IMG/VR virus record: IMGVR_UViG_3300030060_003575
Coordinates: 1-64,000 of that record
Direction: 5' to 3' (one strand)
DNA: 64,000 nt
Source of the DNA: a virus
Shown: one piece after another, positions 24,529 through 64,000 of the stretch
How positions within the stretch are numbered: position 1 is the first letter of the stretch
Layout of the letters: every line of letters starts with the position of its first letter
Made by a program: the position numbers and the translations under genes
Notes under the pieces: model-generated
The model's database searches: none
What the model saw: the letters and a program-made list of their open reading frames with translations, nothing else
Told to the model about the DNA's origin: nothing

Positions 24529-24832
24529 CCTTAAAATTTACATTTGCTGTTTGTAGTTCTTCTTTTATTATATCTGCTATTTTATTATTTAATTGCCTTA
24601 ATACTTCTCCTTGGAAAAACTCACCAAAAAGCATGTCCTCATATATTGGAACATCCCATATTAGGTCTACCTTAGACTTAACATCTAAGTCATCATACAT
24701 CTCACTAGACATAGTAGTTATTATTTCTGCTACGTTACTAATCTCTTGAAATGTCCATGTCTTTTCTTTTAACTTACTTCTTACCTTTTCGCCTATTCTC
24801 ATAACCATGCACCTTCTTCTGCCGCAGGGCAT
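24431..24832 (-). CDS. hypothetical protein
   Basis: ORF within the co-oriented operon; true start probably near 24802. Confidence 0.55.
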   Translation of the reverse strand: MPCGRRRCMVMRIGEKVRSKLKEKTWTFQEISNVAEIITTMSSEMYDDLDVKSKVDLIWDVPIYEDMLFGEFFQGEVLRQLNNKIADIIKEELQTANVNFKDDDKDEVPKRSVGRKPPKKRTTNEKSDSKKQD

Positions 24833-26916: not shown

Positions 26917-27122
26917 TATTCTTCCTCCCATAAACTTTCATCCCAAGGGTTTACCATGACGATGTAATCATTGACAAAAACATTGATACAAGGAATACAA
27001 ATACTACCCCCGTCTACCTCAACATATTGTCTTATACCAAATATTGTTCTATTGGTATGATTACACACAACACAAGTTTCTATTTGGTGTTGCGATTTAT
27101 CGCCTGCAAACCATATGGTCAT
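26916..27122 (-). CDS. small Zn-finger protein
   Basis: CVVC...CIPC; coupled start/stop. Confidence 0.6.
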   Translation of the reverse strand: MTIWFAGDKSQHQIETCVVCNHTNRTIFGIRQYVEVDGGSICIPCINVFVNDYIVMVNPWDESLWEEE

Positions 27123-40390: not shown

Positions 40391-41015
40391 TTATTATTAT
40401 TTTATCTGCTACTTTTTCTTCATTAAACCAACGTTGAATCCATTGCGCCCCATATCCAGCAATCGCAACGTGAGTAAAATGTAACACTTCCTTCTTTCCC
40501 GATTCGTTAAAGTTTTCACCTTGACAGGAAAAGGAACCTTCTGGCCCCGTAAGAAATGTTTCACTAAACTTAGGGTCTGTTAAATAACTGATAAGTGCTC
40601 CATTGCGACCCTGCGCCCTCAGGTCTAACCACTTAGTTTTACAATCATCTTGAAACCCTTCTGCATAGAGAAGTTTCCGTACTGCTAGATTATCTGCACA
40701 ACATACAACTAAATCATATCCTTCTATTTGTTTTCTGGTTACGATTGGAAATTGAATCCCAAGTCGGATACCAACATCATTGTAATGATTCATACATGTT
40801 GTTTCTCTTTTCATAGCGGAAACCTTCATCATATCCAGAGACCCTACTGCATAGTTTTGATAACTTAGGTTCTTTTCTTCTACAGTATCTGGGTCTGCTA
40901 TCGTTATTTCATATAGTTCTGTCTTGTGTAAAAGCGGTGCTAGAAAACTTCCAATACCGCCTACACCAATTATTAATATTTTTCTTGTCATTTTAATTAC
41001 CTTATCCCTGCACAA
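40383..41015 (-). CDS. ThiF/MoeB/E1-like ubiquitin-like activating enzyme
   Basis: IIGVGGIGS, DPDTVEEKNL, CADN..VR, downstream FSCQ cysteine. Confidence 0.85.
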   Translation of the reverse strand: MCRDKVIKMTRKILIIGVGGIGSFLAPLLHKTELYEITIADPDTVEEKNLSYQNYAVGSLDMMKVSAMKRETTCMNHYNDVGIRLGIQFPIVTRKQIEGYDLVVCCADNLAVRKLLYAEGFQDDCKTKWLDLRAQGRNGALISYLTDPKFSETFLTGPEGSFSCQGENFNESGKKEVLHFTHVAIAGYGAQWIQRWFNEEKVADKIIINV

Positions 41016-41929
41016 AATCCTTCTACATCCAACGTTGATAGTTTATCCTTATCTATATTGAACATAGGATATAGTTTCTTAGTTGTCAATCTTTGTGCTA
41101 CTGCTGTGCATTTGCAAGCATCACAAATTGCCTGTTGAGTATGTTCAACCTTACCAATCTTTCTAAGCATAGAGGCTATCCAAACAGCAGAAGCCATATG
41201 ACTCCTTGTAAAATGAATATCTCTCAACGTTAGATAATCATGGATATAATTTACAACCGTCTTTGTTTCCGATGTAAACTCAATCGAGGCATCTAAGTCA
41301 GAACATATTCTATCAACCCAAGGATTAATAGGCATGTTTTGCAGTATGTTAGACTTGCCTAAATGTCTAGCAAAATGTCTAGCATACTTAGATACCTTAT
41401 GTGCATCTTCATTGTTTTGTTCTGCTATTTCAGATATTGTTATAGGAACCCCATTTTCTCTCAAACAAATAACAACAATCGCACATGCTCGTAATGGCAA
41501 TGTCACTCCCCTTAACTTATGGTCTAGATACAAAGAACGATAGTAACTGTGTACTCTGTCCTTTAACCCATGATTTGGTAGGAATGGTGACATAACCATA
41601 TTACATTCTAACAATCCCTTTTGAATAGAGGTTTCATGTGAACTACTTCTAAATCTCTTATTAGTCCTTCTAAGTTGTCTACTCAAACGACTGTTATCAT
41701 CATTACCAATTAGTGACCCTAATTCTCCGGGTCTATCTATTTCATTCTTATAGGTAAAATTACCTGCTTTCAATTGTTCATAGTCAATGGTTCGGTTTGT
41801 CTTATCCTCAAAGATATTACGAACCTGCACATAACCACAATCATCACAGACTGTTTCACCCATTCTATCATCATAACTAAAATTATTTCCATCACATTCT
41901 TCACATTTCATGAAATCACCGTGTCCCAA
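40997..41929 (-). CDS. tfb: transcription initiation factor TFIIB/TFB homologue
   Basis: Zn ribbon CEEC...GETVCDDCG followed by two cyclin-like repeats. Confidence 0.85.
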   Translation of the reverse strand: MGHGDFMKCEECDGNNFSYDDRMGETVCDDCGYVQVRNIFEDKTNRTIDYEQLKAGNFTYKNEIDRPGELGSLIGNDDNSRLSRQLRRTNKRFRSSSHETSIQKGLLECNMVMSPFLPNHGLKDRVHSYYRSLYLDHKLRGVTLPLRACAIVVICLRENGVPITISEIAEQNNEDAHKVSKYARHFARHLGKSNILQNMPINPWVDRICSDLDASIEFTSETKTVVNYIHDYLTLRDIHFTRSHMASAVWIASMLRKIGKVEHTQQAICDACKCTAVAQRLTTKKLYPMFNIDKDKLSTLDVEGFCAGIR

Positions 41930-50855: not shown

Positions 50856-51437
50856 TTATTCACGCATATTAACTAGCAAAAGAACCAAGTATCCTATTAG
50901 GTCTTTTACTACGTCTTCATCAGATTCTAATGATGCATTACCTTGCATCAACCTGTTCAATTTATCATCTATGCGAACTTTCAACTGTTCTGTCTTATCA
51001 GCCCTAGAAAATATTCTTATTGGCTGTAAAGCGGAATCACCATATTGGTCATTCTTATCAAGGAGAAACTGTGTTATTTCTCCCATTGTCTTTGAAATCT
51101 TAAAACTGGATTCGTCTTGGCCCTTCACAGGCTTGGCCTGCTCTTTCGCCTTATTATACTTACCCGCTATCAGATTAGGTTGCATATGTGTTCCCCATTG
51201 AGAGGAACCCATTATCTTTTTAAGATAAGGTTCATTTATTATCTTCTCTTTAGATTGACTCTTTGGTTTTCTACCACCATTTCTTTTACTGATTGTTCCT
51301 TGAGCCTGTAGTCTGTAAATGCGTTGTCTTACAGAACCGACTGTTCTATTCATTTTCTTGGCTATTGCTATCGCAGTTAGCCCTTGCTTCCACAGTTTCA
51401 TTAACTGTGTTTCTTCTTTCTTTGTCCATTTCGTCAT
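50856..51437 (-). CDS. N-terminal HTH fused to DUF1599-like (nucleotide-modification-associated) domain
   Basis: WTKKEE...IAKKMNRTVGSV HTH; KNDQYGDS...RIDDKLNR...DLIGY. Confidence 0.7.
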   Translation of the reverse strand: MTKWTKKEETQLMKLWKQGLTAIAIAKKMNRTVGSVRQRIYRLQAQGTISKRNGGRKPKSQSKEKIINEPYLKKIMGSSQWGTHMQPNLIAGKYNKAKEQAKPVKGQDESSFKISKTMGEITQFLLDKNDQYGDSALQPIRIFSRADKTEQLKVRIDDKLNRLMQGNASLESDEDVVKDLIGYLVLLLVNMRE

Positions 51438-51602
51438 AAAATCACCGATGTTAATTATCTCAGTTTCTTGCAGAGTGTTGTTTCCACAACATTTCTACAA
51501 GTCTGGAAACGACATAATGATGCGGTTAGCATCACTAACTCAGCCATATTGCCCCCATTCGTTTTCGTTTCCATTTTTCCATCATTTACACCCCCTGCTC
51601 AA

Positions 51603-51630
51603 AAGGAAGGAAGGAAGGAAGGAAGGAAGG
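51603..51630 (+). repeat. (AAGG)7 microsatellite within a polypurine tract
   Basis: Read directly from the sequence. Confidence 0.95.
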
Positions 51631-52166
51631 ATAGAGAGAGAGGGGTGGAAAAGTATGTAATAATGTAAATATATTATAATGTATTAGATATATTATCTAA
51701 CTCTTCCATTCTATCTCACTTTCATTTCCAACTCCAATTGGAAACGTGGAAACGTTTGACCCCCTTATCATATCATATAGGATATGTCATATGCATAAGT
51801 GTATAGTATATACATATATTATACATAGAGAGTCTTCCCGGTACATATCGAATCAATGGCGCGATTTAACATCATAACATTTTACGCCATAAATTCTGAT
51901 TAGTATATACTGGCCTTTGGTGGAATACGTGCTTGTAAGGCCATTGATTGTAATTGCCACCAACAATTCTATAGATGGCAGGGGATATATAAGTCGGCGG
52001 CACCCCTCGATGCCCCTCGTCTATAAATATCCTATTTGTCGAACCATATGGTATCAACAACTTTGTCCAGTTGAAACCTGATTTTGAGGAGTCCGACAGG
52101 AAAGGGCGACTTTATCCCTTTCCTGCCAGACAAGAATTGCTGCTAACTAGGCGTGAAAGAAGGGTT

Positions 52167-52676
52167 TTATTCCTCTTCCTCCACAAAGTCGTATTCTGCA
52201 CAAGCGGCAAGTCCATCTAGTGAACCATCCCATGAGCCGTCCTTGTAAAGTTCCCTTGCCGTCTGCTTTGCTTTCTTAGCGAGGGTGTTTGCGTAATCAT
52301 TAGCATCTGTGAACACAGGTGGCCCTGCGCTCTTTCCGTGCTTTCTGAGCAATGGCTGAGAATACTGCGCTGTGCTCTCAAAGAACGTATATGCAGCCTC
52401 TCGGATTGCTTCAGCAGCAGAATCAACCACTACTGATGCAGCAGCAGGTAGTAATCCTTGATTACCTCTGCGCCATACAACCTTTCCTGAAGGGAAGTCC
52501 TTCAGCATTGCTTTAATGGATAGAGCCAAAGCAGCCCTATTATCCACATTGTTGTCACCAGTCTCTATTAGCATAGTTGCTAGAGACCTTACATCATCGG
52601 GGATTGTTCCATCAACGTCACCCTCGATGCATGAGTTTACCTTCATCTTTACCGATTCCCAATTTACTTCATCCAT
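52167..52676 (-). CDS. cassette A protein, paralogue of 54406-54939
   Basis: 169 aa from MDEVNW; shares HGKSxG, YA...KK and WDGS with the cassette B protein. Confidence 0.75.
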   Translation of the reverse strand: MDEVNWESVKMKVNSCIEGDVDGTIPDDVRSLATMLIETGDNNVDNRAALALSIKAMLKDFPSGKVVWRRGNQGLLPAAASVVVDSAAEAIREAAYTFFESTAQYSQPLLRKHGKSAGPPVFTDANDYANTLAKKAKQTARELYKDGSWDGSLDGLAACAEYDFVEEEE

Positions 52677-52738
52677 AATATTCACTTTCCTATTTTTTCT
52701 TTCTTTGCCCGTTAGCGGCATAGTTGTCAATTCTCTGG

Positions 52739-52748
52739 GATATATAAG
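52739..52748 (-). promoter_or_regulatory. archaeal TATA box, cassette A
   Basis: CTTATATATC on the minus strand abutting the cassette-end hairpin. Confidence 0.6.
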
Positions 52749-54405
52749 AGGTTTCAAACAAAGCGAAACCATATGGTAATGAGAGTTTTTTCAGGATACA
52801 AAGAAACATGCATAGAAAAACGCGCGAATTTTCCTTAGTCTAAATTCTTAGTGTGTTTTCTGCACCTCAGTTTCCACTGGTTTTGTTATTTAACATCACT
52901 TCTTTTACGCCCATTACATGACCATATGGATAGTTAGTACGTAGTTACGAGAGGGTCTATGAGAGTCGAGGACTCGTTTAGACTGCTATAAAGTCGAATA
53001 GACGTAAACTGCGTTAAGCAGTAGTAGACGGTAGCATAGGGTGAAGTAAAAGAAGGATTGCGGGTGACTGGTCTACGTACTCAGTTTCCCGATACATGAG
53101 GATATTTTACATGCTTACGCATAATTAACACCATATGATAGCAGTGTAACGTTAGTTAAACGTAATGAATAATGGTGTTTAATGAAACACCAATGAAATG
53201 TAGTAACGATACGTGTAACGAGGTATCTGATTGCTTCTACGAAGACGCTACGCTACAATCATATGGTGTTGATAAAACATAGGTGGCACTGAAAAGGTAC
53301 CGCTTGTTTACAATATCCTTATGATTTGCTCCGCTTTTTACTATAGCCTATGCTACGTGCTTAATGCACTGTCGCAAAAAGAGTTCCCAAATCATATGGT
53401 TGGTTAAGGTTTCCTCTGGTTACCAGTGTGAGGTGCGGAACTAAGGTGCATTACGCACCAACGAAGGTGGTTTGTTCCGGCACGAACATGGTAAGCGGAG
53501 GTGCCAATTATACAACCTCAATGGGATTGGTCTATTCATCTCATTTAACCAACCATATGGTTATAATTCCTCTGGTATACGATTAAAGATGATTAGACAC
53601 ATTAAGTGTCCATCAGGATACCAGAGGAATATATACCCTAATAAAAAAAATAGGGTCTTGCGTCATAAGGCCTATATCCCTTAGCCTGTAACTTGACAGC
53701 ACACCTCGTCCGGTACTACTGTGCGAGAGAAAATATGAATTCTTCATAATCCCTACATAAATGTAAACGGACGCTAAATGCGTCTTATCGTTTTATATAC
53801 ATTTATTCTCGCCCGTTGTACCACGACGATTGTGCTGCAATTTACAGCCTAACGCCTATAAAACCTTATCTCATACCATATGGTCGTAGACCTTAAGGGA
53901 ACGTTAAAGGAATCTAACTCCGCGCACTTGTACGCATTGTCTCATGCACCTTTGTTGGTGCTAAATGCACCTTTTCGACAATGGCACGAAGTCCACTTCC
54001 GTTATATCCTTTAACTTCTTCGACCCATATGATACTAATGAAATGGTGTTTGTAAAAAAAGTCGCGGTAACTTGTTAGCGTGACTACTCTACGTTAGTGC
54101 GTTAAGCACTAATCTAGATGTAGTAGCATAGGGTTTTTTACAAACAAGTATCTGATAGTCCAAGTATTCCTATCATATGGGTTTAGGTTCCAAAGATATA
54201 CAAGAGGTGAAGATAAAAGAAAAATGCATTAAGCATGAGCCGTAGGCGGTTCTTTTATTATTGGCGGAAGCCATGCTTCACCTATTGTATAGCACGGAAC
54301 AACTACCCTCAATTGGGGTCATGTTCTCTAAAGTGAGAACATGTTACCATATGGTCATAACTTTGTGAAAAAGACCAGAAGAGGTTGGTGGCGACTAAAA
54401 CCAAC

Positions 54406-54939
54406 CTATTCTTCTGAACCCCCATTATCGGTGACGGCTGGATAGCCATCATCGGTGTACGACCCGTCCCAGTAGTATCTCTTATCGGTACCATTGGTAA
54501 ACGCATTGAAAGCGGCATTCAAGAATAGCCTCTCTTTCTTGGTCATATCATCTGCGTATGCAGATGCACCATCATCCATAGTGGAGTAAAGAACCCCACC
54601 GGACTTTCCGTGTGTCTTCGCAGTACCAGCCACTAGAGGGTACACGACTGTTGCCATGTTATCCCTGAAGGTTGCTAGGTACTTGTCGAAATCGGACTTA
54701 ACGGCAGTTGTCATTAGAGACTTTCTACCGCCACCAATAGGTGAATTGTCCAAATCAGCGAATACTACGCTGATGCTCGACCAGTGCCTCTTCCTGAGGT
54801 CAGGCTGTGCATCGCCTATTGCGAAGAGACCATCTACAATGACCCTTCTTCCCTCATGCTCTGGGTTCGCGTCAAACCACTCATTGACGTGTTCTTTCTT
54901 GTTGTTCCATACGCTGTCTTCCATGCTGTAATCAACCAT
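54406..54939 (-). CDS. cassette B protein, paralogue of 52167-52676
   Basis: GGAGTGA RBS; motifs shared with cassette A protein. Confidence 0.75.
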   Translation of the reverse strand: MVDYSMEDSVWNNKKEHVNEWFDANPEHEGRRVIVDGLFAIGDAQPDLRKRHWSSISVVFADLDNSPIGGGRKSLMTTAVKSDFDKYLATFRDNMATVVYPLVAGTAKTHGKSGGVLYSTMDDGASAYADDMTKKERLFLNAAFNAFTNGTDKRYYWDGSYTDDGYPAVTDNGGSEE

Positions 54940-54997
54940 ATCTATCACTCCTGTGAATTAGGTGGTTTAGTCGCCACCATAGCACTATTTTCAATGG

Positions 54998-55007
54998 TAT
55001 ATTTAAG
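54998..55007 (-). promoter_or_regulatory. archaeal TATA box, cassette B
   Basis: CTTAAATATA at the equivalent position. Confidence 0.6.
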
Positions 55008-55239
55008 GTACAGTTTAAACAAAGTAACGTACCATATGGGTGCAGGTTTAAGAATGCGTAGCATTCTCATTTAGTTGCTCGGCAACGATAAACGAGCAAC
55101 AAATGGCAAACCAAAGCCCCGTGGGAATGTTTGAGGCACGTAGTAAGATGCTGCTGGTGTCCTTAGACTTGGCTTAATGCCAACGAGTCCAGCAGCACCT
55201 GTTATCTACTTCCATATGGTCATACTTTGTTAAACAGAC

Positions 55240-55600
55240 CATAATCGCTCAACAATGATGCAACGATTTAAACTTGCGCTAACATCAATTTTACAAGTCG
55301 TTGTCTTACTCACTATTGAGATGCATCGTTTTTTGGTAACTGCCAGAAACGTGCAAAACTGGCTCAAGGATGGATGAGTGGATTCGTTTCCTTACCCTCA
55401 AGGTTACATGGGTGTTAGTTCATGCCATTAATTTTGCATGGGCTTTAACCCGTACCTACCAATAACCGACCCGCTAAGGTCATTGTAGTGCCTGTCTTTT
55501 TCTTCGACCGACTCCCTGTGCCGCTAAGCACCGATTATTGTGCCTTTCACCCTAACAACGGTGATATTCAGCCAATCCGGGTCACTCCGTCAAGTGACAT
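55240..55600 (-). ncRNA. candidate structured non-coding RNA (cassette C)
   Basis: TATA-like CTTAAGTAAA at 55618-55627; no ORF of 60 aa or more; many hairpins, including two TTAGCG-loop hairpins. Confidence 0.5.
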
Positions 55601-55819
55601 AGCAATAATATTGATGGTTTACTTAAGGTAATGTTTAACAAAGTTACATTACCATATGGGTTGGCATTAAGCCAATGTTTAGACATTCCCTCATTTATCT
55701 GGCTGCGAGTACCGCTAGGCTTACATTAACCTCTGAAGGAGGTCTAAACAACCTCTTATCTTCCGAGGTTAATTGATACTCTCATCCATATGGTATTGAA
55801 CTTTGTCAACAATACCTGA

Positions 55820-56020
55820 CTAACTGGAATCATCTCCAGTTAAGCCAAGATAATCATTCAATGCTAGATTCAAATCATCCATGACTTGACCCAAATCATC
55901 ACCTGATACACGTAGTTTACTGATTGAAAGCACCAGTGAAGAACCAGATTTCATATGCTTGACTTCAAGCACATATTTGGGTTCGTTGATTTGTTGAACG
56001 ATTGTTTTTTCTTCTGTCAT
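55820..56020 (-). CDS. cassette D small protein (66 aa)
   Basis: GGTGA RBS at 56025-56029; TATA CTTATAAAT at 56144-56152. Confidence 0.7.
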   Translation of the reverse strand: MTEEKTIVQQINEPKYVLEVKHMKSGSSLVLSISKLRVSGDDLGQVMDDLNLALNDYLGLTGDDSS

Positions 56021-57487
56021 AATATCACCAAAGGTGGAGGGGCCATTGAACCAAGTGACTACTTACAGGCATTGAATGCTCGGCGGCAATATACTGTATT
56101 ATCCAGTGTTGGTTGGCCCCTCTATATCAATAGGTATTATGTAATTTATAAGGTAATGTTTACAAAGCCCATTACCATATGGTTTAGTAAGTGACGGTCT
56201 TACTTGCCAGGGAAGGTACGTATACGCGCTTCAGGAACGTAAGTCGTTTAAACGCATTAAGCGTTAGACAAGTGAACGCGCGTAAACGTCCTGGAACTGG
56301 CAAGTAAGAGCAGGAACGCACGTTAAAACCCCGTTAAACCTGAAGGGCATAAGGAACCTCCTTTAAGGCACTCTTGCTTAACGTAACTTAGACAAGACAT
56401 ATCTTCCGTTAAACGCTTTTGCTGGTACTTAATGTACCTACCACTCCATATCTGTCTTGTCTAACTTACGTTAAGCAAGGTAAACCTTAAATCCAACTCC
56501 ATATGATACGAGGTAGGATTCATCTGGGCTTTAGGCCCAAACTAAGGTGGTATGAATCCTTTGAAGTATCTTATGAGGATAGGATAAGCAAGCGGTATAT
56601 CCACAAGGGAGAAACCTATGCAATATTCCCACCATATGTTCACATAAGTGGGCGAACTCAATGGGGATTTATGGGCAATTACCTCCATCTTCGTTCATGT
56701 CTTATATCAAGACATTGTGTGTATTATCATATGCCCATTACCATATGGTTCCAGCATCGCTGGAAGATAACTTGCAATGGAAGCATACAGCAATGAAAGA
56801 CGCATTAAGCGTCCACTTAGGTGTAGCAGGCTGTATGCATCCTAAATGCAAGTTATTCACAGCCCCATTTGAGGATATACATCCATATGGTTATTAATCA
56901 CTTTCTACAAGAATGTCCTCCAAGGGCTTGTAAAATGTCCTAGAGACGCATTAAGCGTCTAACAAAGGTGAAGGGACATTTTAAGGGGATTCGCCGTAGA
57001 AAGTTACAACGCAGTGTTAATCACCTCAGGTTGCTTAACGCTTCGCTACAACCATATGCTTTGCATTCGATTTTTTTTCTTATTAAACATTCGTTTGTTT
57101 ACCCGATTTTGGCATAAGATTTTGTTCTACCTAAGAACACTTTGATATAGAAGCATCTTAGATGCGCGTATAGAGAAGGCTCAGGTGTGCTAAACATATT
57201 TTAATTAATTAAAAATAGATTCGCGGTGCTTCAAGGATACAAAGAAACAAGTATGCTCTAAACACTGCTATTCAACCATTGATACACTGTGATTAAATAA
57301 CAAACAAAGGCTTATTCTGGAAATGCACAAGTTTTATATAGAAAAAAAACGCAAGTGCCGGATAAATTACAGGTCAAATTTTGAAAAATAAAGGTCTAAA
57401 AAATTCCGCCAAAAAAATGGGGTAAATAGAGAATGAAAAAACTACCATTAAAGAAGGTAAAATTAACAAAGTTTAGGTGGTGGGACT

Positions 57488-57895
57488 GTGAGTTGGTTTG
57501 AAGTAGTTAAAAATACGCCAGACATAAACTTTCAAGAAGAAGGAAATCAGTCTTGTTGTAATCAGGCTCAAAGAAACATTAGAAAAGAGAGACCTATAAT
57601 GTATGGTGATATGTGGCATAGTGGTTATTTTGACCAAAGGAACATGTGCTATATATTAAAAGAGTGGTTCACTAATAGATTAAATTGGGACGGTAAGGTA
57701 ATTTTTGATTCTGGTAAAAGATTAAGATTGGAACAACAGAAAAAGGGCTGGTTACAAGATTGGGAAGACTGTAATAAAATCCAAGGAGAAAAAGGCCCGT
57801 TTCCTACGTTACAGAATCGTTTGAATATTCCTGATAAATCTAGAAAAGATATAGGTATAGATGAATCTATGTTTGAGGACACGGGGTATGAGTGA
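57488..57895 (+). CDS. MSW-tagged protein with CC...C...WxxC domain
   Basis: MSWFEVVK start (GTG) with GGTGG RBS. Confidence 0.65.
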   Translation: MSWFEVVKNTPDINFQEEGNQSCCNQAQRNIRKERPIMYGDMWHSGYFDQRNMCYILKEWFTNRLNWDGKVIFDSGKRLRLEQQKKGWLQDWEDCNKIQGEKGPFPTLQNRLNIPDKSRKDIGIDESMFEDTGYE

Positions 57896-58250
57896 TTTTA
57901 TGACTATCAGAAATGAATGGAGAGACCAATTACTCAAAGAGTATGCAGAACAAGAATTTGAAGACGATGGAACGATGTTAGAAATTAACATAGATACTGG
58001 TGATGATGATGAGTGTTGTGAAATGATTAAACGAAAATATAATAATTTTGATAATCGTTATGGTACAGATTGCAATCAAATAAGACTGTACGTAGAAAAA
58101 AATGCCTATGAACTTGTTCCAGATTTTGCAACATTTACACCAAAAGACCCTGAGGCTGCGCGGAGAAGAATGGCAAAATATAAAGCAATAGTAGAAGAAT
58201 GGGATGAGTGTGAAATGAAAAAGAATAGTTGGAAGACTCAATTGGAGTGA
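57888..58250 (+). CDS. CC...C...WxxC domain protein
   Basis: ECCEMIK...DCNQIR...EEWDEC. Confidence 0.6.
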   Translation: MSDFMTIRNEWRDQLLKEYAEQEFEDDGTMLEINIDTGDDDECCEMIKRKYNNFDNRYGTDCNQIRLYVEKNAYELVPDFATFTPKDPEAARRRMAKYKAIVEEWDECEMKKNSWKTQLE

Positions 58251-58254
58251 TATT

Positions 58255-58743
58255 ATGTGTAATAATTGTGATGATTGGAAAGACATTTTAAAGAGTGATG
58301 AAGATAATGATGTATTTTTGAAGGACATTTTTGATAGAGATGACTTTGGTGATGATGATGATGGTGGTTTAGATTTCGGTTCAAGGAAAGTCCATCAAAG
58401 AAGTATGGATAATTACAGTGATAAAACAGCAGTTGGGTTGTTTGATACTCAAGAACAAGAAGACTTGTACCAATATGGTATAAAATGTTATTATTGTGAT
58501 GAACCAGCAGAATGGAAGTGTATTAACGGGTTAACAAAAGGCTGTGCATATGAAGGCCCATCTAATGATGGAGTTCAAGTATGCGGTTCAAATAGTAACT
58601 TTGCAGATGACACCCACCCAGAAGGTCATAAAACATATGCACTGAACCGCAACTCAGGACACACCTTTGTTCCTATTGAAGATTATTTCGATTTAGACCC
58701 AGAATTTGGGTATCAACATGGAAAACACAGGGGTAATAGATAA
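58255..58743 (+). CDS. acidic Cys/His-rich protein
   Basis: WKDILK tag near N-terminus; CYYC...C...C...C. Confidence 0.6.
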   Translation: MCNNCDDWKDILKSDEDNDVFLKDIFDRDDFGDDDDGGLDFGSRKVHQRSMDNYSDKTAVGLFDTQEQEDLYQYGIKCYYCDEPAEWKCINGLTKGCAYEGPSNDGVQVCGSNSNFADDTHPEGHKTYALNRNSGHTFVPIEDYFDLDPEFGYQHGKHRGNR

Positions 58744-58822
58744 TGGCTAAAAGACACCCAAATGGAGATTGCAAATTCTTTAGGGATTTTATGAAAGAAC
58801 TAATTGCAGAAGAGGAAGATGA

Positions 58823-59122
58823 ATGAGTTGGCATACTGTGTTAAAAGAGGATTGTTTTAAAAGAGCAAGACAGACCTTTGTTTTACACACAATAGAAGGA
58901 TTGCAGAGAAAAGGTTATCCATTTACTCAAAAAGATATAGATACTTTAACCAGTAAAATTAAGAAGGCTTCATCAAGCGGGTTTAAGAGAAGTTTAAGAG
59001 AATTTTCAAAAGGTAAGAATTTACCAGATGATGAAAGATTAGCAGCAATTAGAAAAGAAGCAGCAACAGAAGCAATTAATGAGTGGGACAAATGTGTAGA
59101 AAGGAGCCGTGATTTCATATGA
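58823..59122 (+). CDS. MSW-tagged hypothetical protein
   Basis: MSWHTVLK; ends NEWDKC. Confidence 0.65.
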   Translation: MSWHTVLKEDCFKRARQTFVLHTIEGLQRKGYPFTQKDIDTLTSKIKKASSSGFKRSLREFSKGKNLPDDERLAAIRKEAATEAINEWDKCVERSRDFI

Positions 59123-59427
59123 CATGGGAACAAATAATAAAAAGAGGATATGGTAAGAAGTATATGCACCCTGTAACAAGAGAAGCACTTTCGACTGTTA
59201 GGACTCCCTCAGAAATTGGAACTATTCAAACTATAATTAGAGAGCATATTAGAAAAGAAAATGAAAAGAGAAAAGCACAGGTAGGTGGAAACAAAAAACC
59301 TAAAATTTCAGAATCTAGAGCAATGCTTCCTAATTCAAGATTAAAGGTTTTTATAAATAAAGAAATTAGATTAGGTAATATGCGCCAACAAGGTGATAGG
59401 TATTTATGGGTGGGTAAGGATATATGA
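59119..59427 (+). CDS. MTW-tagged basic protein
   Basis: MTWEQIIK. Confidence 0.65.
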   Translation: MTWEQIIKRGYGKKYMHPVTREALSTVRTPSEIGTIQTIIREHIRKENEKRKAQVGGNKKPKISESRAMLPNSRLKVFINKEIRLGNMRQQGDRYLWVGKDI

Positions 59428-59891
59428 CTTGGCAAGATATTCTTAAGATTAGACCTAGAAAAAGAAAGCGTCAAATCAACCCACCTAATATCTTTGCTGG
59501 AGAAACTAATGAAGAGAATCCAAGAAGAATTATGGGCAGGGGTGTAATGAGAGATTTACGAACAGGAGAAGAAGTCGAATCCATAAAAGAAAATACTCCC
59601 AAAGCAAAGCACCACGCACGAAAAATAAAACAAAGACAGGGTTCAATAAGAGAATCAAACACAAGAGCAGGAATTGCCAGTGCAGAACCGGGAGATTTCA
59701 CAGGGTTTAGTAAAAACCCTAGAATTGGTGCAAAAAAAGCAAGGAAGGCAACAAAAACATTTCCTAGAAATAGATGTGCTAGATGTGGCCGTATGTTATC
59801 AGCAAGGAAAAGAAATGATATTAGGGTGAAAGGTAAAGACTTAAGATTATCATTTTGTGATGAATGTGCAGCAGACATGGTGAAAGAATGA
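59424..59891 (+). CDS. MTW-tagged basic Zn-finger protein
   Basis: MTWQDILK; CARC...CDEC. Confidence 0.65.
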   Translation: MTWQDILKIRPRKRKRQINPPNIFAGETNEENPRRIMGRGVMRDLRTGEEVESIKENTPKAKHHARKIKQRQGSIRESNTRAGIASAEPGDFTGFSKNPRIGAKKARKATKTFPRNRCARCGRMLSARKRNDIRVKGKDLRLSFCDECAADMVKE

Positions 59892-60376
59892 CTTGGTTCG
59901 ATATAGTCAAACAATTTGATTGGCGTAAAAATAGAGATGCAAGAATAATGAGACCATCAGGAGAACCATCAGGAGATGCACCAACAGAAGAACTTGAAGA
60001 TATTAAATTTACAAATGTTGGGGGTAGCGGTAAAACACAGGTTAGCGCAATGGGGTTTAAAGCAGCAAGAGACAACTATACAGCATTTAAAAAAGCAAAT
60101 ATAAATTCGCATTATGAAAATGTTGCAAACATATTAGAAAAGTATTCAAAGACAAGAACTGTTCAACCACAAAGAAATCTTATGGAAGAGTATATGGCTG
60201 ATTATTGGGAAGATAGTTTAGTATCACTTAGAAATTTGTATGTGAATATAGAAAAGATAGCAAAAGAAGTGGATAATAAATTCAAAGATGAACCTGAATA
60301 TCTAACTGGTAAAGATAGTGCATATGTTTTACAGCAGGCTAATAAAATCAGACAAGAAGATGAGGCGGCGTTATAA
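59888..60376 (+). CDS. MTW-tagged hypothetical protein
   Basis: MTWFDIVK start overlapping the upstream stop. Confidence 0.65.
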   Translation: MTWFDIVKQFDWRKNRDARIMRPSGEPSGDAPTEELEDIKFTNVGGSGKTQVSAMGFKAARDNYTAFKKANINSHYENVANILEKYSKTRTVQPQRNLMEEYMADYWEDSLVSLRNLYVNIEKIAKEVDNKFKDEPEYLTGKDSAYVLQQANKIRQEDEAAL

Positions 60377-60699
60377 TGGAAGTTTGGTTTGAGATAATTC
60401 AAAAGAAAAGTAAACGCCGAAGAAAGGCTGGTCGCAAGAAAAGAAGAAAGAAATCTTCTGGTGGTCGCTGCACAAGAGCAACGAAGAAAACATCATCTAC
60501 AAGAAAAGGTAAGAAATGGATGAAATGTGTACCTGACGGTAATGGTGGATATAAGAGAGTTCATTGGGGTCAAAGAGGTGTAACTGTTTCTGGTAAAAGA
60601 AAGGGTAAGAGAAGAAAATCATTTAGAGCAAGGCATAACTGTTCTAGTTGCGATAGTAGTGATTATTCTGCTAGATGTATGGCTTGCAGGGATTGGTGA
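60376..60699 (+). CDS. highly basic Cys-rich protein
   Basis: MEVWFEIIQK; VHWGQRG...RRKSFRARHNC...W motif. Confidence 0.65.
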   Translation: MEVWFEIIQKKSKRRRKAGRKKRRKKSSGGRCTRATKKTSSTRKGKKWMKCVPDGNGGYKRVHWGQRGVTVSGKRKGKRRKSFRARHNCSSCDSSDYSARCMACRDW

Positions 60700-60784
60700 A
60701 AATAATGGGATATGCGGCTAAACCTACAGAATGTTATAAAACTTATAGAGCAAGAAAGAAGGCTATGATTGAGGAGGAAGAATA

Positions 60785-60970
60785 ATGTCTTGGTTTGAAG
60801 TTGTAAAGGCTAAAAAGAAGAAAGCCAGAAGGCGTAAGAAAAAGAAAAATGTAGATGATTGTTGTACTAGAAAGGTAAAGGCAAGATATGATGTTTGGCC
60901 GTCTGCTTATGCTTCTGGTGCAGTTGTGCGATGTAGAAAGGTTGGCTGTGCAAACTGGGGTAAATCATAA
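60785..60970 (+). CDS. small basic protein
   Basis: MSWFEVVK; KARYDVWPSAYASGAVVRCRK. Confidence 0.7.
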   Translation: MSWFEVVKAKKKKARRRKKKKNVDDCCTRKVKARYDVWPSAYASGAVVRCRKVGCANWGKS

Positions 60971-61803
60971 TGTCTTGGATGATGGTTCTAAAGAAAGATT
61001 CTAAGTGGAATGAAAAAACACTTAATGCCGAGCGAAGGCAACTCTTAAACAAAGAACCATCATTAAAGGTAGAATTTCCAGAAATGTCACACCCAAGTAA
61101 TGAAAGTGAAATACCAAAAGTTATTGAAGCAATTAAGAATAATAAATTAGATGATAAAACACAAACTGATTTAGACAAAAACTTCAATGAAAAAATGCTT
61201 GAGATTGTAGGCGAAGATATAAAAGATTGGCAACAGTTAATTGAAGATATGAACATAATGATAATTAAATTAAAGATGAAATATAAAAGACCAAGACCTT
61301 ATGAGGTGACAGATAAAATAGATTCAGTAACTGGAACTGATGATAGCCCTTCTTTCCCTAGTGGACATGCAACAGAATCTCATGCAATGGCAAAAATACT
61401 TGGTAATAAATATCCTGATAAGCAAGGTGAATTAGAAGACTATGCAAATAAAATAGCATTACATAGAATGCAAATTGGAAGTCATTATCCTAGTGATATA
61501 GAAGCAGGTAAAAAGACAGGGCAGTTAATTGCTGATGCATATTTATCTACAAATAAACTTGAGAAGTGGCAAGACATTATTGTTAAAGGTAACTTACATC
61601 AATGGTTTAAAAGAAGGGGAGGAAAAGAAACCAAAGATGGAAAAACACAAGGAGGATGGATTGACTGTTCCTCCTGTGGAAGTAAAAATGGGCCTAAACC
61701 ATGTGGAAGAAAAGACGCTTCAGTAGGCAGAAAGAGAAGATGTAGACCAACTTGTTCAGCCTGTAAAGATTATCCAAGAAGAAAAGGGAGAGGAAAAAAA
61801 TGA
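60970..61803 (+). CDS. PAP2-superfamily phosphatase/haloperoxidase-like domain plus basic Cys-rich C-terminal module
   Basis: KMKYKRPRP, SFPSGH, RMQIGSHYPSDI. Confidence 0.85.
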   Translation: MSWMMVLKKDSKWNEKTLNAERRQLLNKEPSLKVEFPEMSHPSNESEIPKVIEAIKNNKLDDKTQTDLDKNFNEKMLEIVGEDIKDWQQLIEDMNIMIIKLKMKYKRPRPYEVTDKIDSVTGTDDSPSFPSGHATESHAMAKILGNKYPDKQGELEDYANKIALHRMQIGSHYPSDIEAGKKTGQLIADAYLSTNKLEKWQDIIVKGNLHQWFKRRGGKETKDGKTQGGWIDCSSCGSKNGPKPCGRKDASVGRKRRCRPTCSACKDYPRRKGRGKK

Positions 61804-62117
61804 GTTGGTTTAAAGTGATGAAATTAGATAACGTTGATATTGCTAGGATAGTGTTAGAAGGGCAACCAACCGACAATACTCCGGGAAACTATGACCCTTG
61901 CTGTGAAGGAGCAAGAGAAGCAGCAGAAAGACAATTACGTGATTATGGCGACATTGGAGATAATGTAATAGGAAGTTCAGATTGGAAAAATTTAAATTGT
62001 GTTAATCTAAGAAAAGAAATAGAAATGTTTGCTGATATGGGTTTTCCTGGTATGATACTAATAGTAGAAGCATGGGATAAATGTGCAAATATGGGTGGTG
62101 CCGATGACTTGGTTTGA
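61800..62117 (+). CDS. MSW-tagged CC...C...WxxC domain protein
   Basis: MSWFKVMK; PCCEGAR...LNCVNLR...EAWDKC. Confidence 0.65.
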   Translation: MSWFKVMKLDNVDIARIVLEGQPTDNTPGNYDPCCEGAREAAERQLRDYGDIGDNVIGSSDWKNLNCVNLRKEIEMFADMGFPGMILIVEAWDKCANMGGADDLV

Positions 62118-62457
62118 TTTAGTTAAATCTTCAGAAATGAAGGAATTTGAAATGCTTGCTGAGAAGTATGCAAAACCTAATGATATGAAACATTTAGATT
62201 ATCTTAGAAAGAAACACGGAAAGAAAAGTCCACAGTTTTATGATACATTAGACAAACAAATAGACTCTTTCTTAACTGATGAGTGGGTTAGCATTCAAGA
62301 AATTGTTAAATCTTTAAGAAAACAAAATCCCGGATTAAAGGATTCTGATGAAAACCTAACTGCATTTTTACGCAAGCGATTAGATAGTATGGACATTAAG
62401 AAGAAACAAGAACCCGCAGTAGGAAGAACGGGTAAAAAAACATTTTACAGGTCATAA
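62104..62457 (+). CDS. MTW-tagged protein, possible winged helix
   Basis: MTWFDLVK; WVSIQEIV...KKTFYR. Confidence 0.6.
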   Translation: MTWFDLVKSSEMKEFEMLAEKYAKPNDMKHLDYLRKKHGKKSPQFYDTLDKQIDSFLTDEWVSIQEIVKSLRKQNPGLKDSDENLTAFLRKRLDSMDIKKKQEPAVGRTGKKTFYRS

Positions 62458-62458
62458 T

Positions 62459-64000
62459 ATGAGTATGTTAATGAAGGCTTTACTTAAAGCATTAGGTGTT
62501 GGTCGTGAGATTGGTACCGAAGATGAAGCACAAGCATTATGGTCAGAGACATTAGGAAAGTTGGGATATAAACCACAACAAGCCTTTCCTGATAATATGA
62601 CAAAGGGAACAGATAGGCTTCTTGGTGACCCTACTATTGGAAGAACGACAAGTGTTGTAGACCATGTGTTTAAACCTCGTTTTATAACTAAAACTTATTA
62701 TGATTTAGAAACTGGAGTGCCTTTGTATAGTAGAACTAAAGGAGTATTAAGTAATCCTGACCTTGTTATTTGGGCTGGAATAGTTGGAATGAGAGATGTT
62801 CTAGGTAATAGATTCCCTAAATCAGATGATGATAAAAGAACAGATATTTATAGAGAAGGCCATCCAGCATTAGGTGGTAAAAAACAACAGCCTGTAATGA
62901 TTGAAGCAAGTAAAATACTTAGTCGAGAGGGACAACCGTTTACTGGTGAACAACCAGATAAATTACCTGCCTTTGATTCTTTAGAGGAACAAGAGAAATG
63001 GTTAGAAACAAACTATCCTGAATATCATAAATGGCTAGTAGAGAATTTACACATGCCAATTGAAGCACAAGGTAATTTAGACAAGTTAGGTGTAAGCAAA
63101 GATAGAGCAGATTTATTAAGATTAGTAGATGAAATAACTCCTAAAAATTTAATAAATACAGTGTTTGATGATGCTGTCAAAGAAGACAATGATAAATATC
63201 AAATAGTTTTAATCGCAAATGACAGCGTTAAAAGTAAAGTTACTGATAGAGGTTTTGTTAGAATATTTTCAGATGGTTATTATAGAACACTCATGGATTC
63301 AGATGAAGTTTCTGATTACATTAAATTAGCATTAGAAAAAATAAACAGCGATGAAGGTAGAGTTATCGGGGCAAAGTCCGAATACTTTATTAGACTGCCT
63401 CAGGGTGCAAAGTTGAAGTCTAAAGTTGCTAAATGGTTAAACGAATTAAAGGTAGGTAAAACAATGTTTGATGACAAAAAGAAAGATTCCGAATGGCGGA
63501 ATATAATTAAAAACGAAGGTAAGAAAGGTGCCGATGAACAAGCAACCATTTCGCAAAGGTCTAAAGGTAGTATGTATCAGGATGATTGGGAAGTTGAGGG
63601 TGAGTTAGATAGATTTACAGCACTTCCAAAAGATGCTGCTAAAGTGGTTAGAGATAAAGGAGTAGCGAGTGAAGATACTAACTGTTGTCTTTTAGTTAAA
63701 GATAACATTCAAGACTATATTAGATTTGAAGAGCCTAGAATTCATCAAGTTTTCGGTACTGACAGAGTTCGACAAATTATTAGTGAACAATTAACCTGCC
63801 CAGATATAGAGGAAATGTTTGTGGAGGAAGGCCGAAGAACAGGTGAGGTAAAAAACCAGCAGGGTACTGTTCTGTATAGAGGTAGATTACCAGAAAAGAA
63901 GATAACTATTGATTTTAATGACCAAATGACTCCTAAAGGTAAACCATATAGAGCAGGTGGAACTGCAAAGGTAACAATAGATATACATAAACCTGCACCG
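62459..64000 (+). CDS. large hypothetical protein, truncated by the window end
   Basis: ATG at 62459 (MSMLMKALLK); frame appears open to the end (spot-checked, and absent from the stop-terminated ORF track); internal EWRNIIK and NCCLLVK. Confidence 0.7.
   Translation, partial: MSMLMKALLKALGVGREIGTEDEAQALWSETLGKLGYKPQQAFPDNMTKGTDRLLGDPTIGRTTSVVDHVFKPRFITKTYYDLETGVPLYSRTKGVLSNPDLVIWAGIVGMRDVLGNRFPKSDDDKRTDIYREGHPALGGKKQQPVMIEASKILSREGQPFTGEQPDKLPAFDSLEEQEKWLETNYPEYHKWLVENLHMPIEAQGNLDKLGVSKDRADLLRLVDEITPKNLINTVFDDAVKEDNDKYQIVLIANDSVKSKVTDRGFVRIFSDGYYRTLMDSDEVSDYIKLALEKINSDEGRVIGAKSEYFIRLPQGAKLKSKVAKWLNELKVGKTMFDDKKKDSEWRNIIKNEGKKGADEQATISQRSKGSMYQDDWEVEGELDRFTALPKDAAKVVRDKGVASEDTNCCLLVKDNIQDYIRFEEPRIHQVFGTDRVRQIISEQLTCPDIEEMFVEEGRRTGEVKNQQGTVLYRGRLPEKKITIDFNDQMTPKGKPYRAGGTAKVTIDIHKPAP

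Follow-up and report, generated by a model that had tools for sequence, protein, structure and literature searches.

Probable autonomous expression cassettes in a palindrome-jointed module array of an archaeal virus

Introduction

Mobile regulatory cassettes known as PeSLs have been described in T4-type phages, where a stem-loop and an early promoter flank small, functionally uncharacterised genes of a hyperplastic region (PMC2839356; PMC4122927). Closely related phages differ there by the insertion, deletion, or replacement of modules with breakpoints in the motifs, and the stem-loop is thought to block transcription coming from upstream (PMC2839356; PMC4122927). The motifs are ~50-70-bp sigma-70 sequences in direct orientation, found in bacterial viruses and exchanged by homologous recombination between motifs (PMC2839356; PMC4122927). 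In archaeal viruses, early and anti-defence genes share regulatory sequences at strong BRE/TATA promoters, and in some cases an inverted repeat overlaps the BRE; these motifs are conserved in sequence, lie upstream of genes only, and have no link to rearrangement (PMC11065993). The manA motif (RF01745) is encountered almost only in marine metagenomes and cyanophages, and is a candidate 5'-UTR cis-regulator in bacteria and cyanophages (PMC2864571).

We analyzed a window of 64,000 nt, positions 1 to 64,000 of IMG/VR record IMGVR_UViG_3300030060_003575, in which four hairpin-bounded cassettes had been noted. The full record spans 75,141 bp. The array resembles PeSLs in placing a promoter and a stem-loop beside small genes and in a turnover of modules with breaks in a shared motif. 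It differs from them in its archaeal TATA promoters, in hairpins mirrored at both ends, and in modules that are mostly non-coding structured DNA; moreover, all that the modules have in common is a 10-bp palindrome, which lets them invert as well. Integrons and their attC sites likewise form tandem arrays of small cassettes, with a boundary conserved as an imperfect hairpin and not in its sequence, and with exchange in a short, conserved core where the hairpin has its base. However, the present array comes without an IntI-type recombinase, an attI site, or a common promoter; each cassette has a mirrored pair of hairpins, one per end, where an integron cassette has a single attC; and the cassettes have their own promoters, stand in both orientations, and use CCATATGG rather than GTTRRRY as the core.

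Clustered short inverted sites giving many orders and orientations are also known from shufflons and phage invertible segments (Rci, Gin, Cin). Shufflons work by inversion only, inside one coding gene, with a dedicated recombinase encoded alongside, whereas the modules examined here are also moved, gained, and lost, form separate transcription units or non-coding DNA, and were found without a recombinase gene. MITE-like elements (TA targets, IS630/Tc1-mariner type) and REPIN/BIME elements share the short, non-autonomous form with terminal inverted repeats and fold-back structure, and CCA-TA-TGG, or TIR - TA - TIR, is a possible reading of the junction; unlike these, the present module families are single-copy per genome and array-bound. 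In an analysis directed at other enzyme families, no DDE or RAYT transposase was recognised. The likeness to the consensus sequences of archaeal viruses (PMC11065993) lies in single-gene units, small unknown proteins, and a sequence specific to the virus that surrounds a strong TATA box, but the present array shows covariation between the arms, closes each cassette with another copy at its distal end, and joins the motif to a recombining junction.

Results and Discussion

The source virus

The source virus is a marine archaeal virus. Its recognised genes include a split family-B polymerase, an RFC-like clamp loader, an XPF-HhH nuclease, and an ATP ligase, and ThiF and the full-length TFIIB homologue were also counted toward the archaeal-virus identity; the best matches of the polymerase were haloarchaeal tailed viruses. 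Magroviruses are tailed viruses whose hosts are the marine Poseidoniales archaea. The virus is most likely a group-B magrovirus or a group-B-like one, an assignment that fits the split polymerase and a tRNA-Leu. Because the virus is archaeal, the TATA boxes described below are archaeal promoters.

Architecture of the array

The array lies between minus-strand replication genes on one side and a plus-strand block of small genes on the other (Table 1). An HTH protein gene adjoins it. The module termini are complementary, ATGG(T)...(A)CCAT, both in four long cassettes and in ~16 shorter structured modules, and CCATATGG was counted 14 times against 1.1 expected, with 13 of the 14 copies within 52044-56890. 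A sequence-only reading had described CCATATGG as the border of the four cassettes; the borders are indeed present, but they are common to ~20 modules rather than peculiar to these. Most modules are non-coding structured DNA, and modules were seen inside the array only. Arrays of the same kind were found in at least 20 related marine viral contigs, and none was found in 185,579 species genomes scanned with one three-junction pattern. We consider it probable that each of the four cassettes is an autonomous expression unit and that the palindrome-jointed array to which they belong is conserved in group-B-like magroviruses.

Table 1. Positions of the array, its cassettes, and associated features in the window
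Feature	Position	Strand	Remarks
TFB/TFIIB homologue, virus-encoded, full-length	40997..41929	-	
Whole module array, ~20 modules, ~5 kb	52044..57059	none	(A)CCAT/ATGG(T) junctions
Cassette A	52044..52776	-	array left edge, one orientation, in all relatives
Cassette A distal hairpin, TATA-less end	52050..52078	+	ACTTTGT loop read inward
Terminator-like G+C-rich hairpin after ORF A	52099..52123	-	RNA contig ends at 52122
ORF A, 169 aa	52167..52676	-	HGKSxG motif, paralogue of B
Cassette A TATA box TTATATA	52741..52747	-	RNA contig upper end 52719, 28 nt downstream of first T
Cassette A promoter-side hairpin	52750..52770	-	GGTTTC/GAAACC
Short module, family 13	52922..53138	none	other junction (cassette C/module 56) in near-identical L007, L009, L010
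Short module, family 74	53131..53266	none	variant ends ATGA...TCAT
Cassette B	54347..55039	-	reversed in L001/L002, L011, L004, L005, L016
Cassette B distal hairpin	54352..54377	+	
Terminator-like hairpin after ORF B	54378..54414	-	RNA contigs end 54418-54420
ORF B, 177 aa	54406..54939	-	paralogue of A
Cassette B TATA box TTAAATA	55000..55006	-	RNA contig upper end 54977, 29 nt downstream
Cassette B promoter-side hairpin	55007..55033	-	
Cassette C	55212..55659	-	without ORF
Cassette C distal hairpin	55215..55243	+	
manA-family RNA RF01745	55367..55597	-	39.2 bits, full model covered
Cassette C TATA box TTAAGTA	55620..55626	-	RNA contig upper end 55598, 28 nt downstream
Cassette C promoter-side hairpin	55627..55653	-	
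Cassette D	55786..56182	-	
Cassette D distal hairpin	55792..55816	+	ORF D stop codon 3 nt further on
ORF D, 66 aa	55820..56020	-	kept in all relatives
Cassette D TATA box TTATAAA	56145..56151	-	start site predicted, ~56123
Cassette D promoter-side hairpin	56152..56176	-	

Rearrangement among relatives

Between genomes 92-96% identical in their flanks, modules were found inverted, moved, gained, or lost, with all breakpoints at the palindrome centre. These comparisons demonstrate breakage and rejoining within the junction's central CATATG, through which modules undergo inversion, transposition, duplication, gain, and loss. Among the 19 modules shared by L004 and L005 (flanks 92% identical), 3 of 18 adjacencies were kept and five modules were flipped; 3/16 were kept between L002 and L011, and 15/18 between the source virus and L007 (96% identical). 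Mixed-strain metagenome assemblies could chimerise such whole-array orders, though each adjacency must still exist in reads, and module order was identical in the independent assembly pairs L012/L013 and L005/L019. Pairs of insertion and empty site were clean with one junction left, as for the family 74 module, whose absence from L007-L010 leaves a clean single junction and which is inverted in L016. Variant half-sites move with their module and co-vary at both ends (7/17 vs 15/213; p = 3e-4), and a DNA contig from another sample departs exactly at the junction 52921/52922.

The cassette borders had been proposed as recombination ends. They are breakpoints, since cassettes B, C, and D were inverted or re-ordered with breaks exactly at CCATATGG, but the ACAAAG hairpin did not hold up as the determinant. 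Every difference between near-identical strains involved a hairpin-less module, and because modules without a hairpin rearrange too, it is the junction that serves as the exchange site. The TTTGT-loop hairpins could instead be recognition ends for a structure-specific recombinase or transposase that moves the cassettes after cutting at the stem base CCAT/ATGG, which we regard as unlikely. The ends are laid out as inverted terminal repeats, structure is kept with free arm sequence (46 arms), the exchange point is exactly at the stem base, and the movement of three cassettes between lineages would fit as well. Against this, hairpin-less modules use the same junction and make up all of the near-identical-strain differences, and junction-anchored hairpins are not general at module ends (0.55 vs 0.43 in shuffles). 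No tyrosine, serine, or HUH enzyme (Phage_integrase, Resolvase, Y1_Tnp) was found in the 75-kb record, which extends the observation that no recombinase is visible to the whole record, and Phage_integrase was also absent from four relatives; these records are only 42-75% complete. The cargo is constant in addition: instead of different cargo between the same ends, A, B, the manA RNA, and D recur in every relative. Fixed cargo and order with unconserved hairpins had been named as the pattern contradicting recombination ends; the cargo is fixed, but the order is scrambled and the hairpins are structurally conserved.

The junction is palindromic and hence without polarity, so exchange between any two junctions could invert a module or excise and re-insert it. 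The array would thus be scrambled by such exchange, carried out perhaps by a site- or structure-specific enzyme that escaped recognition, or perhaps by viral repair and replication proteins (XPF-like and RecB-like nucleases, ATP ligase) that use short palindromic homology. The exchange enzyme may be host-encoded. The scrambled order and orientation of modules point to an undescribed route of viral DNA reshuffling.

Boundary hairpins and promoters

All eight end hairpins of the sequence-only reading were recovered, with stems that begin within CCATATGG and the loop ACTTTGT at left ends or its complement ACAAAG at right ends. The window contains 8 matches to the pattern CATATGG-N(1-16)-CTTTGT, where 0.08 would be expected (0/100 shuffles), and the claimed restriction to cassette borders was upheld, as none of these sites was found elsewhere in the 75,141-bp genome; the class is confined to the long "expression" cassettes. 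As single-stranded DNA, 8/8 ends folded as described, but the hairpins were weak (-2.7 to -6.2 kcal/mol; folding z -1.1 to -4.8) and had 9-16-nt loops. Across relatives, 72 distinct hairpin ends carried 46 different arm sequences, the junction GGT was paired across the CTTTGT loop in 93% of them, and in one variant end the stem was GAT...ATC and the junction CCATATGA, which together indicate that structure and not arm sequence is conserved. One variant clade had AATTTGT loops with unchanged architecture.

The right-end hairpins directly adjoin minus-strand TATA elements in 4/4 cassettes, as had been proposed, and exactly one TATA-bearing end per cassette was found in the source virus, L002, L011, L004, and L005. 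Metatranscriptome contigs from two studies covered A, B, and C only, within a 6.2-kb stretch, with a 30-fold spread of k-mer depth between cassettes. Their starts 28-29 nt past the TATA box in 3/4 cassettes bear out the idea of self-contained expression cassettes. The cassette promoters work, and the end hairpins lie outside the abundant transcripts because the RNA contigs stop 28-29 nt downstream of the TATA box, with RNA strand and exact ends being those of assembled contigs rather than raw reads. Along the coding strand, a cassette would comprise a junction half-site, a boundary hairpin, a TATA box, a start 28-29 nt on, and the gene, followed 3' by a G+C-rich terminator-like hairpin, the mirror-image boundary hairpin, and a junction half-site. 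Since the ...ACC 3' arm of the hairpin directly precedes the TATA box, it occupies the BRE position, of which the viral TFB homologue could be a reader.

The fixed spacing from hairpin 3' arm to TATA box in every promoter-bearing end, together with the virus's own TFB homologue, would suit the structure-gated promoters that had been suggested, in which, as in phage N4 early promoters, an extruded hairpin rather than the duplex brings in the polymerase or else a viral factor right after infection. We find this very unlikely, as four TATA-less ends per genome bear the same hairpin, the stems are weak with large loops, the TATA-to-start distance is standard for archaea, and no virion RNA polymerase was recognised. 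It is similarly improbable that a dimeric viral repressor or activator of early genes uses the inverted repeat upstream of TATA as its operator, with the distal copy serving as another operator by which the cassette is looped or closed off. Such a role has been proposed for BRE-overlapping inverted repeats in Sulfolobus viruses, sequence conservation of the loop, A(C/A)TTTGT, extends across clades, and candidate binders are at hand (D, A, B, and the HTH protein adjoining the array). However, a dimeric operator should have conserved arms, and here the arms vary with the loop alone conserved; none of the proteins A, B, and D yielded a DNA-binding fold.

Returning to autonomous expression units, the TTTGT-loop hairpins may be DNA-level boundaries and promoter-upstream elements of highly expressed units rather than exchange signals. 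As they face outward on both sides, they would keep the promoter context and shield a cassette from incoming transcription in any orientation and beside any neighbour, a parallel to the PeSL motifs of T4-type phages. This boundary or insulator role is inferred, and it is opposed by stems that are weak as free hairpins and by the fact that no transcript was seen ending at a hairpin. Archaeal termination is also oligo-T dependent, not hairpin dependent.

Cassette cargo

The four cassettes carry three proteins (A, B, and D) and one manA-type RNA (C). The ORF B model was helical (pLDDT 81) and the ORF D model a beta-hairpin plus helix, and for neither was a match to a known fold found. The cassette C RNA and those of relatives match the full covariance model of RF01745, and the array RNAs of L006 and L024 (70.0 and 62.8 bits) exceed the gathering score of 55.2 bits. 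It was noted that the RNA contig at 55399-55598, corresponding to the manA-family RNA, had the greatest depth of the region. The cassette C RNA is a stand-alone, very abundant manA-family transcript, which differs from the described manA motif in being driven by an archaeal promoter of its own, in lacking a downstream ORF, and in being the most abundant RNA of its region in an archaeal virus.

Modules joined at a palindromic junction

Between positions 52044 and 57059, the DNA is made up of approximately 20 units separated by (A)CCAT/ATGG(T) junctions, comprising the four expression cassettes A to D (see the table of features) and approximately 16 short units of ~105-330 bp. The palindromic junction sequence CCATATGG occurs 14 times in the window compared to 1.1 expected; 13 of the 14 copies fall within 52044-56890, and further junctions up to 57059 are supplied by forms of CCATATGG with one mismatch. 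The lone copy at 27111 falls in the coding region of a small ORF located between the two halves of the polymerase, and it was noted that this ORF (from 27123, minus strand) starts MTIW, thereby creating the palindrome. Reading inward, the module ends share ATG followed by G (92%) and T (79%), with little conserved beyond that, and the termini form terminal inverted repeats of the type ATGG(T)...(A)CCAT. Variant half-sites of the form ATGA...TCAT stay with their module and are complementary at both ends (7 of 17 vs 15 of 213, Fisher test; p = 3e-4). Because these imperfect half-sites co-vary at both module ends, the unit is ATGG...CCAT, with the exchange point inside the central CATATG.

The short modules have no sequence relation to one another and fold well. 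They are strongly structured (examples being 53392-53560 and 55032-55219), and where strain variants exist they carry compensatory changes, at 5 of 56 pairs in the case of module 53392-53560. Each module family is present in one copy and restricted to the array, and modules show little k-mer similarity to one another. An Rfam scan of the array (E<=5) matched a manA-family RNA in cassette C and nothing else, and a junction-anchored hairpin at every module end barely exceeded shuffled controls. It was noted that many short modules contain a GC-RTTAA-GC pentaloop hairpin in either orientation. The pentaloop orientation did not predict the strand with the stabler fold (26 vs 22, p = 0.39), and this test therefore lends no support to strand-specific RNAs.

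To the left of the array, 51440-52044 is ~600 bp of A+T-rich sequence with no convincing gene, and a plus-strand TATAAATA at ~52023-52030 would be directed into the end of cassette A that has no TATA box. The HTH protein on this side is 65-68% identical in its C-terminal half (phrog_1485) even in relatives in which identity of proteins A and B falls to 31-37%. To the right (57488-64000 and contig L025, genome positions 62001-75141), many plus-strand ORFs start M-(S/T)-W-x-x-(I/V/L)-(I/V/L)-K, examples being MSWFEVVK, MTWEQIIK, and MTWQDILK.

Features of the window and of related contigs
Feature	Location	Strand	Details
TFB/TFIIB homologue	40997-41929	minus	310 aa; zinc ribbon and core; residues 20-288 align to TFIIB and Pyrococcus TFB
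HTH protein	50856-51437	minus	193 aa; adjoins the array; N-terminal HTH; weak HTH_28 and 'transposase' PHROG matches
Cassette A	52044-52776	minus	protein A, 169 aa
Cassette B	54347-55039	minus	protein B, 177 aa
Cassette C	55212-55659	minus	RNA
Cassette D	55786-56182	minus	protein D, 66 aa
manA-family RNA (RF01745), cassette C	55597-55367	minus	231 nt; 39.2 bits, E = 1e-7; model positions 1-192 (whole model)
manA-family RNA (RF01745), relative	L006:8236-8504		70.0 bits
manA-family RNA (RF01745), relative	L024:7356-7624		62.8 bits
manA-family RNA (RF01745), relative	L004:3601-3828		50.2 bits
manA-family RNA (RF01745), relative	L016:5692-5927		46.8 bits
manA-family RNA (RF01745), relative	L012		28.9 bits
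Partial protein A paralogue	L002:13893-14084		46% over 67 aa; outside the array
Second-clade array, L026	IMG/VR 3300025853_000046		
Second-clade array, L034	IMG/VR 3300006752_000216		
Second-clade array, L038	IMG/VR 3300001450_000138		

Rearrangement among related viruses

Related arrays were searched for with proteins A and B first and then with a three-junction DNA pattern. Comparable arrays were found in at least 20 marine viral or metagenome contigs, with protein A identity from 100% down to 37%. A second marine viral clade carries CCATATGG arrays without protein A, and the hairpins of its large cassettes have an AATTTGT loop and are followed by ACCTTATAT. One cassette, ~910 bp long, was seen to be inverted in L026 relative to L034 and L038. 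Across 185,579 species genomes, all 43 cellular matches to the three-junction pattern were short-period tandem repeats or three-site chance matches, and a DNA search of the phage collection gave no match. Akkermansia MAG contigs (L044, L049-L052, and others) contain many tandem repeats of 78/81-bp period that include CCATATGG; these repeats are unrelated to the viral array, yet they dominate pattern scans for CCATATGG arrays.

Each array was cut at its junctions and the modules were clustered for comparison of their order. In the related contigs L004 and L005, which are 92% identical in ~9 kb of flank, 19 shared modules are 68-97% identical over most or all of their length. Only 3 of 18 adjacencies are kept between the two, and five modules are flipped, one of them in place with its neighbour unchanged. 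The pair L002/L011 (A cassette 93% identical) keeps 3 of 16 adjacencies, and the window virus keeps 15 of 18 with L007 (flank 96%). Module order is almost wholly scrambled by ~8% sequence divergence. Near-identical genomes from independent assemblies have identical order (19 of 19 adjacencies in L012/L013 and 24 of 24 in L005/L019), which argues against an assembly artefact. A DNA contig from another sample leaves the window sequence exactly at 52921/52922. Among near-identical strains, module 52922-53138 is found at another junction, module 53131-53266 is missing with a single clean junction remaining, and other individual modules are found inserted, missing, or duplicated.

In the next lineages, cassettes B, C, and D differ in both orientation and order, and the cassette borders do recombine, as an earlier sequence-only reading had proposed. 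The same reading had suggested checking relatives for different cargo between the same ends; the cargo was found to be constant. Modules shared between lineages are approximately as diverged as the rest of the genome, with family 6 as one possible exception, and the shuffled set is therefore inherited rather than promiscuous mobile DNA. Comparison of module similarity with background gave no sign of promiscuous horizontal spread across lineages.

Hairpins and promoters of the cassettes

The hairpins described from the sequence at the cassette borders were confirmed. We found eight copies of CATATGG-N(1-16)-CTTTGT compared to 0.08 expected, with no others in the 75,141-bp genome, and these are exactly both borders of cassettes A to D, always inward-reading, in agreement with the claim that the class is limited to cassette borders. 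Single-stranded DNA folding gave the proposed stem from the junction GG(T), with CTTTGT in the loop, for all eight, although their stability is low (free energies of -2.7 to -6.2 kcal/mol, with loops of 9-16 nt and z between -1.1 and -4.8). The right-end hairpins were said to abut minus-strand TATA boxes, and all four adjoin a TTAWRTA element; a hairpin thus adjoins a TATA box at four of the eight ends. The class is confined to expression cassettes and always present at both ends, outward-facing. It is also conserved in relatives, where 93% of 72 distinct ends pair the junction GGT across the loop with 46 different arm sequences. Orthologous ends of cassette D form a compensatory series, from GGTAATG/CATTACC through GGTAGTT/AACTACC to GGTTGTTA/TAACAACC, and a CCATATGA junction is accompanied by a GAT...ATC stem. 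What is selected is the structure and the loop sequence of the hairpins, not the arm sequence.

The virus most likely belongs to the group-B magroviruses, given its split family-B DNA polymerase, archaeal-type replication genes, and tRNA-Leu; a split polymerase and tRNA-Leu are marks of this group, whose members infect Marine Group II archaea (PMC5434244). Its replication module further includes an RFC-like clamp loader, an ATP-dependent ligase, an XPF/ERCC4-HhH nuclease at 22710-23399, a RecB-like PD-(D/E)XK nuclease at 24799-25680, and a ThiF-type E1 with a JAB protease, and the best polymerase matches are haloarchaeal tailed viruses. From this archaeal viral gene content it follows that the TATA boxes are archaeal promoters. 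The viral TFB homologue could steer the RNA polymerase of the host towards viral promoters, and the BRE position in the cassette promoters is taken by the ...ACC arm of the hairpin. A sigma-70 reading with -35 and -10 elements was rejected, as the CTTTGT-to-TATA spacing of ~11-13 nt misfits and both the gene set and the TATA-to-start geometry are archaeal. To our knowledge, magroviruses have never been cultured. The magrovirus literature, as far as searched, does not mention palindromes, hairpins, or non-coding arrays.

Assembled contigs of three metatranscriptomes (two studies) and of one DNA run were compared with 51400-57600. The DNA run covered this whole region evenly, and RNA contigs were found over cassettes A (52122-52719), B (54418-54977), and C (55399-55598) only; cassette D and the short modules had no cover in the three RNA runs, which is not evidence of silence. 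Such coverage does not resemble carry-over of DNA. The approximate k-mer depth in one RNA run was ~55 for A, 265-380 for B, and 1,885 for C. The upper RNA-contig ends lie 28 (A), 29 (B), and 28 (C) nt downstream of the first T of the TATA box, which places the boxes at -28/-29 to ~-21 relative to these ends, the standard archaeal geometry; the start of D is predicted. The proposal that the cassettes are self-contained expression units with their own TATA promoters is borne out by these starts, and in the window virus and its relatives L002, L011, L004, and L005 each cassette has exactly one end with a TATA box and one without. The lower RNA-contig ends of A and B are at G+C-rich hairpins just past the stop codons. 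It follows from the contig ends at A, B, and C that both boundary hairpins lie outside the abundant transcripts, the promoter-side hairpin preceding the start, its 3' arm occupying the BRE position, and the distal one beyond the terminator-like hairpin. As far as we found, these are the first promoters and transcript ends mapped for magroviruses, alongside a virus-encoded TFB. A 201-aa ORF from the junction ATG of cassette A was discarded, being upstream of the RNA start and not conserved in relatives.

What the hairpins do was narrowed by these observations. The CTTTGT/ACAAAG hairpin had been suggested as a determinant of recombination, which did not hold: modules without it recombine at the same junction and make all of the differences between the closest strains, and so it does not serve as the signal for exchange. 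Nor is it just a promoter element, because it is also present at promoter-less ends. A structure-gated promoter is unlikely as well. N4-type promoters have a 5-7 bp stem, a 3-nt loop, and a virion RNA polymerase, whereas the array hairpins have long loops and weak stems, and no RNA polymerase family was matched among the large ORFs. Since the hairpin lies outside the transcripts, it acts either at the DNA level or on polymerases coming in. All of these constraints are satisfied by a boundary element, a functional assignment that we infer. Such an element would set the upstream context of the promoter and shield the unit from either side, in any position or orientation.

Cargo of the cassettes

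Proteins A and B are paralogues (hhalign 99%) with a common HGKSxG motif. The model of protein B is helical with a small beta-hairpin (pLDDT 81), and that of protein D is a beta-hairpin with a helix. Fold searches with protein B (Foldseek and VIA-wide) and protein D (Foldseek) yielded nothing beyond generic helical or weak matches, and proteins A, B, and D, with nine homologues each, had no match in PHROGs or Pfam up to E<=10. For protein B, the ESM Atlas gave DUF5895/Pam3_Gp34 (score 0.87), a lead only and without Pfam backing. An AbrB/MazE-like assignment of protein D was not supported when checked. The partial protein A paralogue outside the array of L002 indicates that the A/B family has more than two members.

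Cassette C has no ORF, with none longer than 12 codons downstream within the cassette, and its manA match starts at the mapped RNA start. While the window copy scores below the RF01745 gathering score of 55.2 bits, the array RNAs of the two most distant relatives (L006 and L024) are above it. Family members were reported as candidate riboswitches, found in marine metagenomes and in the 5' UTRs of cyanophages (PMC2864571); according to a 2026 preprint, manA RNAs form RNA-only decamers and a 60-mer cage. In contrast to a family placed in the 5' UTR of a gene, the cassette C RNA has no gene downstream within its cassette and has its own promoter in an archaeal virus. It is the most abundant RNA of the region, a stand-alone transcript with its own promoter and boundaries, which argues for a trans-acting or structural role and changes the reading of a family classed for 15 years as a possible riboswitch. 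A stand-alone manA RNA is also an unexpected cargo for a shuffling system. These observations suggest magroviruses as a possible source of some of the manA sequences labelled 'marine metagenome'.

Exchange at the junctions and comparison with known systems

The sequence-only reading saw no recombinase, and this holds for the families searched. PF00589 (Phage_integrase, E<=1) had no match in the 75,141-bp record or in four related viral records, and neither PF00239 (Resolvase) nor PF01797 (Y1_Tnp, HUH) had a match in the 75,141-bp record; all of these records are only 42-75% complete. Because the palindromic joint has no polarity, one type of event between two junctions can invert, delete, or (via a circle) re-insert a module, and this matches the spectrum of rearrangements seen. 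One candidate for the exchange is an unrecognised site- or structure-specific enzyme; another is that the viral XPF-like and RecB-like nucleases and ligase act on the hairpin-rich DNA through template switching or short-homology joining. Restriction-ligation, with NdeI-like cutting at CATATG and sealing by the viral ligase, is unlikely, as there is no shortage of CATATG outside the array (26 sites vs ~24 expected by estimate).

A stronger proposal, which we regard as speculative and rather improbable, is that magroviruses possess a dedicated DNA-shuffling system. An unrecognised viral or host enzyme acting at ACCAT/ATGGT would continually invert, excise, and re-insert ~20-27 self-contained modules (insulated cassettes of early genes, a manA RNA that forms cages, and numerous small structured elements), with the mirror-image TTTGT hairpins as purpose-built insulators for any position or orientation. 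If true, it would diversify, in a combinatorial manner, the early region of a virus that is abundant in the ocean.

Several known systems share features with the array. Integrons have an adjacent IntI tyrosine recombinase and co-oriented, mostly promoterless cassettes with one attC at the 3' end, whereas PF00589 had no match in the records searched, the cassettes of the array have mirror hairpins at both ends and their own TATA promoters, and both orientations occur. Shufflons carry a dedicated Rci-type tyrosine or Gin-type serine recombinase beside their segments, and IS200/IS605 hairpin ends and REPIN-RAYT systems depend on an HUH Y1 transposase; the 75,141-bp record has no Pfam match to any of these enzymes. 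MITEs with a TA target (IS630/Tc1-mariner-like) resemble the modules in having terminal inverted repeats. The junction can be parsed either as CCA-TA-TGG with a TA target-site duplication or as abutting ATGG...CCAT units, the sequence being identical in the two cases. Such MITEs occur as many near-identical dispersed copies, whereas the modules are single-copy and confined to the array, and no array was found in the species genomes scanned.

The array is similar in form to the PeSLs of T4-type phages, in which a stem-loop that stops upstream transcription is combined with an early promoter, and which mediate modular shuffling (PMC2839356). In both cases a stem-loop and promoter motif flank small genes in a plastic region, and modules are exchanged between close relatives at breakpoints that lie in the motif, although the promoter type differs. 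In archaeal viruses, early genes have common regulatory sequences surrounding strong promoters, and in some cases inverted repeats overlie the BRE (PMC11065993). The array represents, in an archaeal virus, a new version of shuffling modules by way of motifs at their boundaries. Shuffling via conserved boundary motifs was already known from T4-type phages, but the logic here differs in that modules can also be inverted at the 10-bp palindromic joint and each expression unit is enclosed by mirror-image hairpins. The junction itself offers a defined place at which a new recombination activity can be tested for.
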